Assembly: GCA_963815455.1 (NCBI GenBank)
Contig: CAWFGO010000002.1
Coordinates: 652,708-716,707, forward strand
Length of the DNA: 64,000 bases
Direction: 5' to 3'
Source of the DNA: an uncultured Verrucomicrobiae bacterium
GTDB taxonomy: Bacteria > Verrucomicrobiota > Verrucomicrobiia > Chthoniobacterales > UBA10450
Shown: piece by piece, positions 52,262-61,424 of the stretch
Layout of the letters: each line of letters starts with the position of its first letter
Numbering within the stretch: position 1 is the stretch's first letter
Position numbers and translations under genes: made by a program
Notes under the pieces: model-generated
What the model saw: the letters and a program-made list of their open reading frames with translations, nothing else
Database searches by the model: none
What the model was told of the DNA's origin: nothing

Positions 52262-55025
<2,764 letters not shown>

Positions 55026-55187
55026 AATCAATCCAGCGGAGAACCCAGGGGCGCGCGCCGGAACCGCCAAAGTAGTTCCCCCTATTGGTGTGTCAACGAA
55101 CCGTCTCCATCCGCCAACGTAGCACTGGCCTCCGGCCTGTGGGGCCGGCGGGCCCCCGCCTGCCGAGTAGCTCGATTCCTCCCGGAA

Positions 55188-55718
55188 ATGGAAAAACTGC
55201 TGGACCGGACGCGGTGGCAGCTACGTGCGAAACATTATTCCATTCGAACGGAGGAAGTCTACGTCGACTGGATTCGCCGCTTCATACTGTTTCACCGGAA
55301 ACGCCACCCAGACGAGATGGGTGAACGCGAGATCAGCAAGTACCGCAACGCCAATCGTTCCTGGGTATGGCAATATGTATTTCCGGCCGATAAATTGTCG
55401 ATCGACCCGCGTTCGGGAGAACTGCGTCGGCATCATGTGTTAGAAAAGAATCTGCAAAAAGCGGTCAAGATTGCCATCGAGCGAGCGGCCATCAAGAAGG
55501 CGGGCAGCTGCCATACCTTTCGGCATAGTTTTGCTACGCATTTACTGGAAAATGGCCAGGATATTCGTACTGTGCAGGCATTGCTCGGGCACAAAGACGT
55601 ATCCACCACCATGATATATACCCATGTCCTAAATAAACCCGGATTGGGTGTGAGAAGCCCCTTGGACTACGATGCCCCTCCTATTGAAATGAAACCCAAC
55701 CCCGCTCGAAATAGGTGA
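55188..55718 (+). pseudogene. intI: Integron integrase with large in-frame internal deletion
   Basis: N-terminal [27 protein letters not shown] is joined directly to the IntI-specific [15 protein letters not shown]...DPRSG.LRRHH, then [16 protein letters not shown] and TTMIYTHV. Only 176 aa; box I is missing. Confidence 0.92.
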
Positions 55719-55746
55719 ACAATTGTTCCTCTACTTCTCGTTAGGC
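55717..55746 (+). other. Probable attI site
   Basis: Core GTTAGGC at 55740-55746 just before the first cassette ORF, with no upstream attC arm; palindrome GAACAATTGTTC at 55717-55728. Confidence 0.6.
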
Positions 55747-55748
55747 CC

Positions 55749-56066
55749 ATGCGCCGCGCGTTTACAATCGCCCTACTCTGCGCACTAGCAACTGGATGTG
55801 CGGAGCTTCCGTCTCGGGAAGATCGAGCTGTCTCTCAGCTTGACCGTGTCATCATCGCATGGATGCGCGCCAATTCAGTTCGTCCATTTCCAGTGCAGCA
55901 AGAACGTATCGTGGCTTTCGCAGCGGCTTGCCATATGTCCCTCGATTTATCACCATTTAGTCGGCTGGACTGGCAGACCGGAGCGACTTATTTGATCATC
56001 ACATGGCACGTCTCCACTCCAGCTTACCGTGAAGGCACGCTCACATACAGCACCGGGACTATTTGA
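55749..56066 (+). CDS. Cassette 1: putative lipoprotein
   Basis: Lipobox-like LATGC after a hydrophobic signal; bounded by a core site and attC1. Confidence 0.75.
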   Translation: MRRAFTIALLCALATGCAELPSREDRAVSQLDRVIIAWMRANSVRPFPVQQERIVAFAAACHMSLDLSPFSRLDWQTGATYLIITWHVSTPAYREGTLTYSTGTI

Positions 56067-56075
56067 TTCGACCCG

Positions 56076-56198
56076 GTCTAACCAATCGCTCGAGCGAACC
56101 GCCACCCGTCGCGCGCCCGCATTTCAGATGATTAAGCCACTTCCACTTCGAGCACCGCTCGCCCTCACTGGCGGTCGCTCAGCTCTGTCTCGTTAGAT
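56076..56198 (+). other. attC site 1 (123 bp)
   Basis: GTCTAAC...GTTAGAT; arms GCT[C]GAGCG[A]ACCGCCA / TGGCGGTCGCTCAGC with two extrahelical bases. Confidence 0.93.
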
Positions 56199-56200
56199 CT

Positions 56201-56551
56201 ATGAAGCGTCACGTCGCTGTCATCATGCTCTTCGCCGCGGCTTATTTGCATGCTGAGCTACCGCCAGAGATGCAAGGCGCAGAAGCAGTTCGTCTGAACT
56301 TGCTTTTACGTCATCCGCCGCCGGAATTTCCATATGAGGTGCGCCGGACGCTTAAGACCTATAGCGGGGTCTTTCTGCTACGGTTTGATTACGAAAGCGG
56401 CCAGCCACGACAGATTCACATTGCCAAGAGCAGCGGCAATGAGACTTTCGACGCTTCCGTCGTTGCAGCATTGAAGCAGTGGCAGGCAAAGCCTCGTTCA
56501 CTGAAGGTTATCCGGGTTCCAATTACCTTTACCCATAGTGCGCCACGGTAG
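56201..56551 (+). CDS. Cassette 2: exported TonB C-terminal domain protein
   Basis: Signal peptide; PPPEFPYE, SSGNETFDASVVAALKQWQAKP, VPITF. Confidence 0.8.
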   Translation: MKRHVAVIMLFAAAYLHAELPPEMQGAEAVRLNLLLRHPPPEFPYEVRRTLKTYSGVFLLRFDYESGQPRQIHIAKSSGNETFDASVVAALKQWQAKPRSLKVIRVPITFTHSAPR

Positions 56552-56674
56552 ATCTAACCAATCGCTGCAGCCGACGGCTACCCGCTGCGCGTTCACATTT
56601 TTTATGACTAAAACAGTTCCAGAGATTCTCACCCTCGCTTCCGGTAGCCGCGGCTGAGCTTTGTCTCGTTAGGT
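56552..56674 (+). other. attC site 2 (123 bp)
   Basis: ATCTAAC...GTTAGGT; inverse core complementary to the cassette's own core GTTAGAT. Confidence 0.93.
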
Positions 56675-56679
56675 GCTTC

Positions 56680-57543
56680 ATGCGACGCTTGCTCACCATC
56701 GTGATCCTCCTTGCAACCGTTTGTGTCGGTGCGGGGGCATCGGCACCGCACCAGAAAGCGCACGTACTGGATGCCACCGCCTCGCATCCGGTGCGGCTCT
56801 CGTATCTTCTGTTCGTTCCCGACAGCTACGCGAGCACGCCGGATACACGTTGGCCCCTCATTCTTTACTTGCATGGCGGCTCACTGCGCGGCGCCGATGC
56901 AGAGCGCTTACGCACGCTAGGACTTCCCCACATCCTGGAGGACAAGCCGGATTTTCCCTTCATCGTTGTTTCCCCGCTATGTCCCGCGGGCGAGATTTGG
57001 ACGGATGCGGACGCTATCGGCGCGTTGATGGATCGCGTGCTTCACGATTACCGCATCGACGTGAGTCGTGTGTACATCACCGGCCACAGCATGGGCGGTC
57101 GCGGCGCACTCTATTTCGCTTATCGGTTGCCCTCGCGGTTTGCCGCCGTCCTCGCGCTGAGTCCCTATTCTCCGATTACCGCTTGGGGCGGCGAGCTCGC
57201 CCAGACTCCTCTTTGGCTTTTTCATGGCACAGCAGATACGCTCGCACCCATCGCAGATACGAGGGAGATAGTTCAGGCCGTCGAGTCTGCGGGCGGGCAT
57301 CCCAAGTTCAGCATTCTGGAGGGACGCGATCATTTCATTTTGGACGTTTATGATCAGCCGGATATTTACGATTGGCTTTTACGGCAGAAGCGACGTATCC
57401 GGTCCCTCAGCAGCCACCCCGCACCTAACCATGCGATGGAGCGAACGGCGGACCGCTCCGCGTCTACATTTGAGATGACTTCCACACTTCCACTCCGGGC
57501 GAAGCGCGCCCTCGTCCGCCGTCGCTCATCTTGTTCTCGTTAG
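56680..57543 (+). CDS. Cassette 3: exported alpha/beta hydrolase (predicted peptidase/carboxylesterase); ORF reads through attC3
   Basis: LYLHGG, TGHSMGG, FHGTAD, GRDH catalytic triad motifs. Confidence 0.88.
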   Translation: MRRLLTIVILLATVCVGAGASAPHQKAHVLDATASHPVRLSYLLFVPDSYASTPDTRWPLILYLHGGSLRGADAERLRTLGLPHILEDKPDFPFIVVSPLCPAGEIWTDADAIGALMDRVLHDYRIDVSRVYITGHSMGGRGALYFAYRLPSRFAAVLALSPYSPITAWGGELAQTPLWLFHGTADTLAPIADTREIVQAVESAGGHPKFSILEGRDHFILDVYDQPDIYDWLLRQKRRIRSLSSHPAPNHAMERTADRSASTFEMTSTLPLRAKRALVRRRSSCSR

Positions 57544-57545
57544 GT
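57423..57545 (+). other. attC site 3 (123 bp)
   Basis: ACCTAAC...GTTAGGT; very similar to attC4. Confidence 0.93.
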
Positions 57546-57557
57546 GCAGCTCGCGTT

Positions 57558-57995
57558 ATGGTCTTTGATCGTCTCTCTCAGCCGATTCCCCGCGCAGACC
57601 GTCATCGACTTTACCTCTACAGGATTGCCGCTCTATCTCCCAACGCGCGTTTCATGGACTACCTGCTCAACTTCATCGAAGAGCGCTTCGAGCTCCTGCC
57701 ACGCGAGTCTCCTTCGAGGCAGATTTGCTTTCGCCCGCAGTTCACTGCGTTCGTATCTGCAAACAAGACAAAAGGCGGGCTTCACGTTTCACTATTCGGC
57801 GAGGAGTTTCTTACTGGTACGGTTCAGCGCGCCAAGTTTCCCAACTGGCGAAAGTTCGTTGTTTCGCATTCGGACGATCTCTTTACCGCACGTTGCCTCA
57901 TAGAGGAGGCATATCAGCATCGTGTGTCTGCGGACGCCGAGGGCAAGTGGACGTTCCAGGAAGAGCTTGCTCGACTCGCCGAGTTCCATGTGTAA
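57558..57995 (+). CDS. Cassette 4: hypothetical protein
   Basis: 145-aa ORF filling the space between the core site and attC4; no family I can assign firmly. Confidence 0.65.
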   Translation: MVFDRLSQPIPRADRHRLYLYRIAALSPNARFMDYLLNFIEERFELLPRESPSRQICFRPQFTAFVSANKTKGGLHVSLFGEEFLTGTVQRAKFPNWRKFVVSHSDDLFTARCLIEEAYQHRVSADAEGKWTFQEELARLAEFHV

Positions 57996-58004
57996 AACCG
58001 CCAC

Positions 58005-58128
58005 ACCTAACCATGCGATGGAGCGAACGGCGGACCGCTGTGCGATCTGCTTCTGAGATGACTCCCACACTTTCACTCCGAGCGACGCGCGCCCTCGTCC
58101 GCCGTCGCTCATCTTGTTCTCGTTAGAT
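58005..58128 (+). other. attC site 4 (124 bp)
   Basis: ACCTAAC...GTTAGAT with paired arms. Confidence 0.93.
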
Positions 58129-58304
58129 CCAAACAGAGCGGATCACGATCAGCGCGCATCAGTTCTTTTTCGCATCGCCCGTTTGCCTCTCTCGTGATAC
58201 ATTTGGTTTCTCCTCGATTTTCAGACCAGCCCGATGAGTGTCTTGAACTTCCCCGCACACTTCGAAGCCAGATCGAACCGCTGTCGCGACATGGAACGGT
58301 TTCG
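58129..58304. other. Cassette 5: short cassette without a long ORF
   Basis: 176 bp between matching GTTAGATC and GATCTAAC. Confidence 0.8.
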
Positions 58305-58325
58305 ATCTAACCAATCGCTGGAGCT
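58305..58325 (+). other. attC site 5, left part (split by IS)
   Basis: ATCTAACCAATCGCTGGAGCT aligns with the starts of attC1 and attC2. Confidence 0.9.
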
Positions 58326-58336
58326 CCTATGAGGGT

Positions 58337-58342
58337 TGTCAA
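58337..58342 (-). promoter_or_regulatory. Outward-facing -35 box (TTGACA) for a circle-junction promoter
   Basis: Perfect TTGACA on the minus strand, 11 bp inside the IS end. Confidence 0.65.
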
Positions 58343-58395
58343 CCGTGGAACGGGTATTGTTTGTTTTTCTTTAGTTTTTTCCTTTCCCGGTTTTT

Positions 58396-58661
58396 CCAGC
58401 CTTTAGTGGTTTGATCCGCAGGGTGCAGCTTCCCTCTGTCGTGTTGTCTCGCCGGGGCGAGTCACCAGCTCCTATTCGAGCATCGCTTTTGTTGTGCGAG
58501 CCCATGATGTCGTGCCTGACTTTGGGAAGCCGCTTTGGGCGGAACGCGCCCCATCTAAGCGATGATCCCTTGGTTTCAAAGGACCAGCTCCAGCGCCGAG
58601 CAGCGTTCCACCCTGCAGCCAAATCAAACTTTGCTTGGAAGTTCCGTTTCGTAAAAGCTGA
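58396..58661 (-). ncRNA. Predicted bridge/seek RNA of the IS110-family element
   Basis: Two internal-loop hairpins (58537-58613, 58460-58521) whose loop strands match the target and donor junction sequences; enclosing long-range stems. Ends are approximate. Confidence 0.85.
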
Positions 58662-58677
58662 GGGTTAAATCTGTTTG

Positions 58678-59799
58678 TTAGGGTTTCACCTGGGATGTAG
58701 ACAGGCTCCAGCCCAGTTCGGCGGCACTGGCCCGGCCGGTTCGCCAGCGCCAGATGTCTATGGCGAGTTGCCGGGCCAGGGCCACTGCGATTTTCTTTTT
58801 CAGCGAGGCGCCGTGCCTTAATTTCTCCAGATATTTCTGACGAGCATGCCAATTAGGCTGCCAGCGAAGAAGTCGCCAGACCGCCTCGACCAGGAGCGTG
58901 CGCAAATGTTTGTTGCCGTGCCGGTCGATGCTTCCAAAACGCTGGATCCCGGCCGAACTGTATTCGCTAGGACAACACCCAGTGTAACTGCCCACGGCTT
59001 TGCGATGCTTGAAGCGTTGCCAATCGCACACCTCCCCGTCGATCAGCGATACCGTTAGCGCACCCAATCCCGTCGGGATTTTTTCTTCCCTCACCAGCGC
59101 TTCAATCTCCTGGGTCAACCGATCCAATTGCGCTTTGGCCGCTCGGATCTGTTCCATGACCGGTTCAAGCTGCCCGCGCACAAACTCGCTGCACTGCGGC
59201 CCGATTCGTTTCCACTTCCGCGGTCCGCCCCACCCAGCCTCCAGCGTCTCATGCTCGTGCTCGATCCGCAGCGCTCGCCCGTGATTCTCCAGCCGCCGCA
59301 CTTGGCGTTTCCAAAACTCCCGCTGCCGCCCCAGCTCCCGCCGTTGTTGCTCCCCCCGGCTCGGGATTCGGATTGGTCTTAATTCCTCTCTCTGCCCATC
59401 CAGGTAACGGCTCAATCGCACACACAACTCGCGCGCATCCATCCGGTCGTTCTTCCGCCGCCGCTCCAAATTTAATCGCATCGGGGTCGTCCCGACGCTC
59501 TTTGCTCCCGCTTGAGTTAATTGCTCGTGCAGCGTATAACCAAATCCGCAGCATTCCCACACCGCGTAGACCACATCGCCTACACCCACTTTTTGCTTCA
59601 CCCACTCGAGCAACTGCTCGCGAGTATACTTCCGCGCCGGCCCAATCGTTCCCCGCCCACACTGGATCGCCACCACCATAAAACGCAGGTCCACGTCCAG
59701 CCCAAGCTTCCACACCCGCCTCACTGCCCCATTGCCAGGGGCGCTTGAATTGTTAAACTTCTCTCCGCCATGAAGGGTTGTTGTTGTTTTGTTTTTCAT
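58678..59799 (-). CDS. IS110-family DEDD recombinase/transposase
   Basis: LGLDV, VWECCG, KNDRMDA (DEDD RuvC-like); GCCPSEYSSAG, GNKHLRTLLVEA, VALARQLA. Confidence 0.93.
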   Translation of the reverse strand: MKNKTTTTLHGGEKFNNSSAPGNGAVRRVWKLGLDVDLRFMVVAIQCGRGTIGPARKYTREQLLEWVKQKVGVGDVVYAVWECCGFGYTLHEQLTQAGAKSVGTTPMRLNLERRRKNDRMDARELCVRLSRYLDGQREELRPIRIPSRGEQQRRELGRQREFWKRQVRRLENHGRALRIEHEHETLEAGWGGPRKWKRIGPQCSEFVRGQLEPVMEQIRAAKAQLDRLTQEIEALVREEKIPTGLGALTVSLIDGEVCDWQRFKHRKAVGSYTGCCPSEYSSAGIQRFGSIDRHGNKHLRTLLVEAVWRLLRWQPNWHARQKYLEKLRHGASLKKKIAVALARQLAIDIWRWRTGRASAAELGWSLSTSQVKP

Positions 59800-59847
59800 A
59801 CAACGCGTGTGCCCGTTTTGCCCACGCTTTTCAACCCTTCATGGCAT

Positions 59848-59953
59848 CTAACCGCCACCCGCCGTACGCTCCGCGCGACAACATGACTACTGACCACCGA
59901 CTACGGACCACGCTCGCTCTCGGTGGCGGTGGCTCAGCTCCTTCTCGTTAGAT
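59848..59953 (+). other. attC site 5, right part
   Basis: CTAACCGCCACCCG...GGTGGCGGTGGCTCAGCTCCTTCTCGTTAGAT aligns with attC1. Confidence 0.9.
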
Positions 59954-60416
59954 ATTGAACCCCGCGGACTCGGGTAAACGCCCGTTTGTGGGAGGTCAGC
60001 CAACGTCCTTACCGTGCCGCTTTGGTTCGGCCCAAATAGAAGGCGATCGAAGCTGGGATCCCAATGAATACGACAAGAAAACCGATTACGAGCATATGTT
60101 CACATTTAGCACCAATCGTGCCTTTGTTACAACTGTGTTACAGTTGTGTGACGATCATGTAAACAAAAATCGTCGATTAAGTGAAGATTTTTCGGCCGCG
60201 TCCGAAAACGGCTGGCCCAGCCATCCGATAACGGATTCAACCCAACAACCTAGCCAACAAGGTAAGAGGAAACACGGGGCCAGCTCCGAAAGTGTTCGCC
60301 CCGCCACGATGGTATCCCCGCGTGAATAAAGTTCGTCACCGCGAGGACGCGCTCACCAGACACGCCAAACGCCCGAACCGGCGGGCAGGCGGTGCGCTAC
60401 CCTGAACTACGGCAGC

Positions 60417-61424
60417 TTAGCGGCTGCCGGTTCGCGCGCCGGGCGTCGGGCTGGGCCGGGATTTTGTTTTCGTGCTTTTGCGTACGGTGATGGTGGCTTC
60501 GCCGGCCGCTTGTTCTTCAGAAGATTTCTTGCTGCCGCGCCAGATCAGACGCCACGGCTCCGCTTTTATGGTCTCGCTGAATTCCTTGATGTTCGCGCCG
60601 ACCGGTTCGAGATCGCGCATCGTAATTTTTAATTTTTCCGACGAGTCCCGGAAGTTATCGAGCGTCACGGCGAGATTATTGTTGGCCGAGAGGTCGTTGC
60701 TGATTTTTTCTATGTTCCTGAGCGAGACCGAAAGCGGGCTGTCCGGCGCGGAAAGATCGACAAGGTGCTCGCCGAACTTCTTGAACTGAACCAGGGCAAG
60801 GTTGAGCTCGGAATTCTGCTCGGTGATACGGCTGAGATTTTGCGCCGTGGTCTCCAGCTCTTTCATGGTGGAGGTCGCTTCGGCCGCGACCGGCTTGATG
60901 ATTTCGAGCATCTTGGACGCCGCTTCGCTAAAATCCGGGGTGCGTTCGCCGGCGAAAATCTCGCCGTCGTGGGCCTGCCCTGACGCCTCGGTGCCCTGGG
61001 TGAAGTCGATCGCCATTTCGCCGAGCAAGCCGAGCTGCATCAGGCGCGCGTAGGCATCGCGATAAACGATCCCGCTCTTGTCCACCTGGACGTCGATGCG
61101 TGCTTCATATTTCGGTTTGCCATCGGGCCGCGCCGGCGTCGCGCCTGGCTCCGGTTTACGATAAACAGCGGCGGCTTCCTGCGCCCGCTGCTCTTCTTCA
61201 CGCGACACGGGCGAGAACAATTTTGAAACCTGGCCGATCTTTCGTCCGGCCAGCATGACCGGCGCCCCCAGTTTAATTCCGGCGGCGTTATCGACGTAAA
61301 TTCGATAGGTCACCAGCGGGCGGAAAAGCCCGGGCGCGCCGAGAAGGATGAGCACAAACGCGAGCGCGGCCACGGTGCCGACCACGAGCAGTCCGGTCAT
61401 TATTTCATTTCGTCGTAATTGCAT
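60417..61424 (-). CDS. mlaD: MCE/MlaD family protein
   Basis: N-terminal TM, NAAGIKLGAPVMLAGRKIGQV, GLLGE. Confidence 0.88.
   Translation of the reverse strand: MQLRRNEIMTGLLVVGTVAALAFVLILLGAPGLFRPLVTYRIYVDNAAGIKLGAPVMLAGRKIGQVSKLFSPVSREEEQRAQEAAAVYRKPEPGATPARPDGKPKYEARIDVQVDKSGIVYRDAYARLMQLGLLGEMAIDFTQGTEASGQAHDGEIFAGERTPDFSEAASKMLEIIKPVAAEATSTMKELETTAQNLSRITEQNSELNLALVQFKKFGEHLVDLSAPDSPLSVSLRNIEKISNDLSANNNLAVTLDNFRDSSEKLKITMRDLEPVGANIKEFSETIKAEPWRLIWRGSKKSSEEQAAGEATITVRKSTKTKSRPSPTPGARTGSR

Follow-up and report, generated by a model that had tools for sequence, protein, structure and literature searches.

Comparative evidence for a position-7 handshake in the guide RNA of an IS1111-type element inserted into attC

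The DNA analysed here, called the window, is a stretch of 64,000 nucleotides from the genome of an uncultured Verrucomicrobiae bacterium. It probably carries an RNA-guided insertion sequence of the IS1111 type that inserts into attC sites, and in whose RNA position 7 of each of two loops acts as a handshake. Handshake guides are already known from IS621, where they were named and tested and where the covariation signal lies at position 7 (PMC11208158). The present analysis adds comparative evidence for the position-7 rule in an IS1111-type RNA encoded downstream of its gene. The initial annotation was right in its register and in its analogy to IS621, but it overstated the handshake for positions 5 and 6. 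In the titles and text passages covered, no handshake was found described for an IS1111-type RNA; such cases may already be included in Extended Data Fig. 10c of PMC11208160 and in the IS110 covariation set.

An IS1111-type element in an attC site

Judged by its sequence features, the element belongs to the IS1111 group, with inverted repeats 7 and 3 nt inside its ends and long non-coding DNA downstream of the transposase gene (about 350 nt, against less than 60 nt upstream). The repeat spacing is kept in most relatives, with 6 nt in L007 and L012. The lack of a target duplication, long known for IS1111 (PMC11187229), is found here as well: in 68 of 119 insertions, one junction has a different core from the other, and a contig of run X7 preserves an empty site, in which 58324 is joined to 59850 with a single G between and the core is CG. 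The earlier reading of CT as a duplicated core is contradicted by three of four copies in the genome; the right-end junctions of the four read CT, CG, CC and CG, and the other junction is CT throughout. A further near-full copy, the fifth (L005, G000:C6), lies at a contig end and is damaged, with stops in its gene and several changes in the region of the right donor guide, which may reflect decay or assembly error.

Table 1. Features of the element, its guide RNA and its surroundings (window coordinates)
Feature	Position	Strand	Basis or remark
IS1111-type insertion sequence	58326..59849	-	five genomic copies with differing flanks; left end at the high coordinate
CT, part of the element	59848-59849		
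IS110-family transposase, 373 aa	58678..59799	-	NF033542, 160.9 bits (cut-off 140)
Sub-terminal inverted repeat	58329..58338	+	sequence; 3 nt from right end
Sub-terminal inverted repeat	59832..59842	+	sequence; 7 nt from left end
TTGACA, -35 box of predicted junction promoter	58337..58342	-	ends joined in silico
-10-like CATGAA	59838-59843		17 nt spacing from TTGACA
Predicted two-loop guide RNA	58420..58622	-	downstream of gene; ends inferred; fold z -3.3
Left target guide	58586..58595	-	10/10 match to left flank 58316-58325
Right target guide, core plus 2 nt	58555..58558	-	positions 10 and 11 match in 61/64 and 62/64 close relatives
Putative target-loop handshake guide AU	58553..58554	-	58554 (position 7) separates donor T from target G; 58553 (position 6) does not
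Loop-closing base, third letter of initial annotation	58552	-	U in most distant lineages; stem begins one base on
Left donor guide	58505..58514	-	7/10 match here
Right donor guide, core plus CCTAT	58469..58475	-	identical to right end of element
Putative donor-loop handshake guide CU	58467..58468	-	58468 (position 7) discriminates; 58467 (position 6) does not
attC target, left part	58306..58325	+	TCTAAC box, left target, own core 58324-58325; pattern recurs in 51 empty sites
attC target, right part, ending GTTAGAT	59850..59953	+	sequence
Four more attC-like sites, empty, same cassette array	56077..58128	+	
Integron-integrase-like ORF, short	54957..55718	+	TIGR02249, 221.9 bits (cut-off 265), two stretches

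The transposase residues D35, E82, D118, D121 and S282 align with the catalytic motifs of IS621, as seen from a profile match to the IS621 and ISCro4 structures and from conservation. Both the DEDD RuvC-like domain and the C-terminal serine domain of the IS110 family are present; among the Pfam models, PF02371 (the C-terminal domain) was matched, and PF01548 gave no match at E 0.001. The protein is distant from IS621 (profile E 4e-7), and its identity to plasmid IS1111 proteins is only 24-29%. Its named close relatives are Verrucomicrobiota, and a search of viral contigs for relatives returned one fragment.

Several architectural traits are shared with the seekRNA elements ISEc11, ISPa11 and IS4321/IS5075 as described in PMC11187229: the sub-terminal repeats with their spacing of 7 and 3 nt, the downstream non-coding region, the absence of a target duplication, and a top-strand match that precedes the bottom-strand match in element orientation. 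Those elements differ in being described there, in the passages covered, with target guides and without a handshake. They also have a junction promoter. The one predicted here, from ends joined in silico, would form in the circle only; joined ends were found neither in the 176 loci of set 1 (see below) nor in the contigs of four runs.

The target is an integron attC site. Like ISKpn4, ISPst6 and ISPa25 of the IS1111-attC group, the element has inserted near a TAAC box, with its gene directed against the cassette array. Compared by position, it lies elsewhere in attC than that group: its distance from the GTTAG box is 14 nt, and the distance tabulated in PMC13604230 is 6 nt. Empty attC-like sites, each about 120 bp long, number at least 51 and are spread over several arrays on three contigs of the genome (G000 C1, C2 and C3). 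The integrase-like ORF of the array in the window (54957-58128 region) appears internally shortened.

A second IS1111-type element of the same genome, 38% identical (L007, G000:C1:1712926-1716080), has inserted at the identical place in attC; both of its junctions read CC, and its left end is shorter by 1 nt. In a sister clade (L014, L016, L059, L060, L062, L064 and L085), the insertion lies 1 nt from the GTTAG box. On this sequence record, members of the subfamily have used two different positions in attC as targets, and both add to the positions at which attC is a target.

A two-loop RNA with four guides

Positions are numbered as in IS621, with 1-7 as the left arm, 8-9 as the core and 10-14 as the right arm, on the CT strand (+ here). 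The whole non-coding region folds better than its shuffles (z -4.1). Among 37 representatives, the stems covary: pairing reaches 99% in the closing stem of the target loop, where both sides of the stem have changed, and 88% in the donor-loop hairpin. An inner target-loop hairpin found no support on the distant alignment, where it is 39% paired. A search of Rfam with positions 57000-61000 gave no match at gathering level.

The predicted RNA has the guides of a bridge RNA. In the target loop, left and right guides covary with the target; more specifically, a comparison of 62 close relatives shows the left target guide changing together with the flank at positions 2 and 5. The guides of the donor loop follow the ends of the element. 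The right donor guide tracks the right end across five different right ends, and the left donor guide agrees with donor positions 4, 5 and 6 in 33/39, 39/39 and 39/39 rows, with covariation, but with positions 7, 8 and 9 in only 20/39, 18/39 and 22/39 rows.

Two loops, four guides and a right target guide of 4 nt are also the layout of IS621. The differences are that the RNA here is encoded downstream of its gene and is antisense to the CT strand, that the left donor guide has no hold on positions 7-9, and that position 6 is common to donor and target. Bridge RNAs of IS1111 elements were predicted in PMC11208160, and their target guides were demonstrated in PMC11187229, whose authors did not commit themselves on a shared mechanism.

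In alignment A4, the left target guide has either of two registers with respect to the loop end, which differ by one base, according to lineage. In genome G119, the left target guides of three copies (L012, L030 and L036) differ, apparently through recent retargeting, and only that of L030 fits its flank well.

Junction matches in this element

The initial annotation had noted that bases next to the right guides match the recombinant junctions, and both matches were confirmed. CATCTAA at 58552-58558 equals the right junction at 59845-59851, and AGCTCCTAT at 58467-58475 equals the left junction at 58322-58330; each string occurs exactly twice in the window. In shuffles, 3.3 occurrences are expected for the 7-mer, which is not above chance, and 0.17 for the 9-mer, which is. 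With the register fixed by the core and the right guides, the five extra letters would match by chance with a probability of about 6e-4 (0.013 x 0.044).

The further claim, that these bases match only after strand exchange, holds for position 7 (58554 and 58468) and fails for position 6 (58553 and 58467), which pairs before and after. Position 6 does not discriminate here because both the donor (59846) and the target (58322) have A. Since it is shared by donor and target, only two of the five letters of the annotation discriminate. Positions 6-7 of the element form two Watson-Crick pairs before exchange and four after. For the two discriminating letters in this single element, the chance of a match is 0.084, so that the support rests on relatives.

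Covariation at position 7 among relatives

Two sets of relatives were compared. Set 1 holds 176 loci, with the RNA segment in 155, giving 139 distinct rows, 123 distinct insertions and 28 lineages, relatives of at least 50% identity being merged into one lineage. The left end was placed manually in 5 loci and dropped in 12; the right end was dropped in 4. Set 2 (52 loci) was collected after the prediction had been fixed; 6 repeats, 9 loci with no match to the RNA and 1 locus whose register was doubtful were removed, which left 36 loci in 25 clusters, three of which are members of the close clade. From the tree rows, L050 was left out, and L184 and L224 are long and doubtful. The lineages are kin, and the counts below are not independent.

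Position 7 of the donor loop forms a Watson-Crick pair with position 7 of the target in 33 of 43 lineages, with 2 wobbles and 8 mismatches. The target is paired in 20/23 lineages of set 1 (shuffled mean 7.9) and in 13/20 clusters of set 2 (shuffled mean 8.6, P 0.012). With its own donor, the same base never makes a Watson-Crick pair (0/40), a G-T wobble before exchange being possible in 22/40. It takes three states that track the target (G, C and U); on the tree, it changes jointly with the target four times, and no change runs in the opposite direction. Tree-aware sign tests were not significant, with at most four independent pairs on well-supported branches.

The position-7 base of the target loop forms a Watson-Crick pair with donor position 7 in 37/40 cases and a wobble in 2 more, and it pairs with its own target in 3/43. 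Donor position 7 is almost invariant across lineages; the target-loop match therefore rests on conservation and on one change, in L012, where the register is uncertain. An A at position 7 of the donor loop is found in L012 alone, the lineage with the changed donor letter. In IS621, the mutation G166A abolishes recombination, while C and U at this place work (PMC11208158); the 0/40 own-donor pairing and the lone A in L012 mirror these mutants. The IS110 covariation signal reported in the same paper falls in the same columns as that found here. Across the relatives, position 7 thus pairs in the exchanged state, where it faces the non-cognate strand, and not in the state that precedes it; position 6 does not show this behaviour.

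The idea that CAT and AG consist of handshake bases throughout was borne out at position 7 alone among the bases compared. Covariation among homologues, which the initial annotation had proposed as a check, is present there and missing at donor-loop position 6 and at the third letter, 58552. Position 6 of the donor loop pairs with the target in 8/42 and with its own donor in 24/40, which rules it out as a handshake. A three-letter target-loop handshake is likewise ruled out, position 5 of that loop pairing with the donor in 10/40 (9/41 for position 5 of the donor loop). Position 6 of the target loop pairs with the donor in 34/40, the target being paired too in this element, and in one clade (L199, L211 and L213) the donor and the target loop have changed together at position 6.

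Among close relatives, L046, L122, L125 and the L161 family show a mismatch at position 6 or 7 of the target loop or an altered donor end; the L161 family has made six insertions despite its position-6 mismatch. In the canonical IS5075 (L229), examined by eye and in an unsure register, the donor loop matches target positions 8-7 and no target-loop match to the donor is seen. IS5075 lacks a clean pattern, and the handshake claim is therefore not extended to all IS1111 elements.

A proposed mechanism and its alternatives

In the terms used for IS621, the + strand of the window is the 'top' (CT) strand. In each loop, the letter at position 7 would mismatch its own DNA before the strand swap and pair with the incoming strand after it. 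The rise from two to four pairs at positions 6-7 would then favour insertion and disfavour excision, as in IS621, where handshake control of direction was tested and a bias to integration shown (Hiraizumi 2024, PMC11208158; 2026, PMC13626964). IS621 resembles the present element in its net gain of two pairs on insertion, in its position-7 covariation and in a target-loop handshake of AU facing AT in the donor. The design rules of IS622 also rely on the handshake (bioRxiv 10.1101/2025.05.14.653916). A bias to integration in this element would follow by the same logic. The strict rule would be the absence of pairing before the swap; pairing after it would be preferred, not obligatory.

That last asymmetry bears on a rather unlikely alternative, in which position 7 is selected solely against cognate pairing before exchange and pairing afterwards adds little. 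It would account for the complete lack of own-donor Watson-Crick pairs together with the 8/43 mismatches after exchange, and it agrees with the recombination still seen in IS621 with G166C and G166U (PMC11208158). Avoidance would, however, permit any of G, C and U, whereas a donor-loop C is found with a target G in 8/8 lineages of known target, and a donor-loop U with a target A in 6/8. We consider it improbable that the extended matches instead aid RNA binding of finished junctions for copying-out, and not a bias to insertion. The matches are literally the product junctions, and circle formation by ISEc11 requires target flanks according to PMC11187229; against this, pre-exchange pairing is reported to inhibit excision of IS621 (PMC13626964), and IS621 excision is reported to proceed without the need for target complementarity (bioRxiv 10.64898/2026.08.31.748434).

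The least probable of these alternatives is an inherited coincidence, with the RNA letters kept for the fold or for protein contact and the DNA ends kept for repeat spacing and the junction promoter. It does hold for positions 5 and 6 of the donor loop and position 5 of the target loop, and the near-constancy of position 7 in the donor and in the target loop, like the chance value for the single element, speaks in its favour. It does not explain why position 7 of the donor loop shifts with the target on at least four branches.

Unmatched cores and the strand retained at the junctions

In contrast to IS621, this element does not require target and donor to agree at the second core letter, and finished insertions show top-strand sequence at both junctions. 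In relatives of IS621, T9 is described as 'almost invariant' and is contacted by the protein; here, position 9 of the target is mostly C or G. The target-side core of 62 close relatives is CG in 28, CC in 28, CT in 5 and TC in 1, so that a core dinucleotide shared with the donor, CT, is found in 5/62. The 51 empty sites have CG in 23, CC in 22 and CT in 6, and comparison of the 62 relatives with these sites gave no preference for or against CT targets (Fisher p 0.54). The same sites have G at position 7 in 51/51 and A at position 6 in 50/51.

Among the 119 insertions with both ends, 68 have the donor CT at the left and another core at the right, none shows the reverse, 48 are CT/CT and 3 are CC/CC. 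All informative counted insertions (68/68) thus have the top-strand outcome at each junction. No insertion has donor positions 6-9 at the right end, although these would be expected in one daughter if the bottom strand is cut between positions 5 and 6, as we read the reported cut. The end scoring of set 1 favoured the usual left end through a bonus; scoring by the repeats only arrived at identical ends in most of the close clade. The dropped left ends, when rechecked, were contig ends, damaged ends or CT, with one further case of the common class, L215.

Taken together, the junction sequences are consistent with top-strand cuts after position 9. Integration of the top strand only, followed by host resolution, fits them; such integration is reported for CazIS110-1, in which it exceeds bottom-strand integration more than 1,300-fold (bioRxiv 10.1101/2025.10.25.684509), and accords with the single-strand excision reported for IS621 (bioRxiv 10.64898/2026.08.31.748434). 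An equally good fit is given by two-strand exchange in which repair invariably takes the top strand as its template, a possibility admitted by the IS621 authors, and by a blunt second cut. The CazIS110-1 result is biochemical and the present one genomic, and genomic junctions cannot separate one-strand transfer, directed repair and a blunt second cut. We therefore offer only tentatively the reading that the clade is a natural bridge recombinase that transfers the top strand alone, in which case no matching core would be needed.

The clade routinely recombines unmatched cores, which provides a natural strand marker for the question of one-strand versus two-strand integration and suggests an enzyme that is not restricted to a CT core. 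If transfer of the top strand alone is correct, these genomes record one-strand integration of IS1111-type elements in vivo, and bridge editing would be less bound, with this enzyme, by the core-matching rule that now restricts it.

Both right guides read the donor T at position 9, and the left target guide has been reprogrammed to the target letter (CC, in three separate clades). More specifically, where targets are always CC (the L014 clade, L071 and L215), the left target guide has CC and the right target guide keeps CT, with L060 as the exception. The right junctions of L043 and L228 carry one or two additional letters, which suggests imprecise resolution. One aberrant insertion (L040:1130-1150) has target positions 9-5 at its left end and has lost six donor letters; no other insertion has target letters there, and this one is not a clean bottom-strand product.
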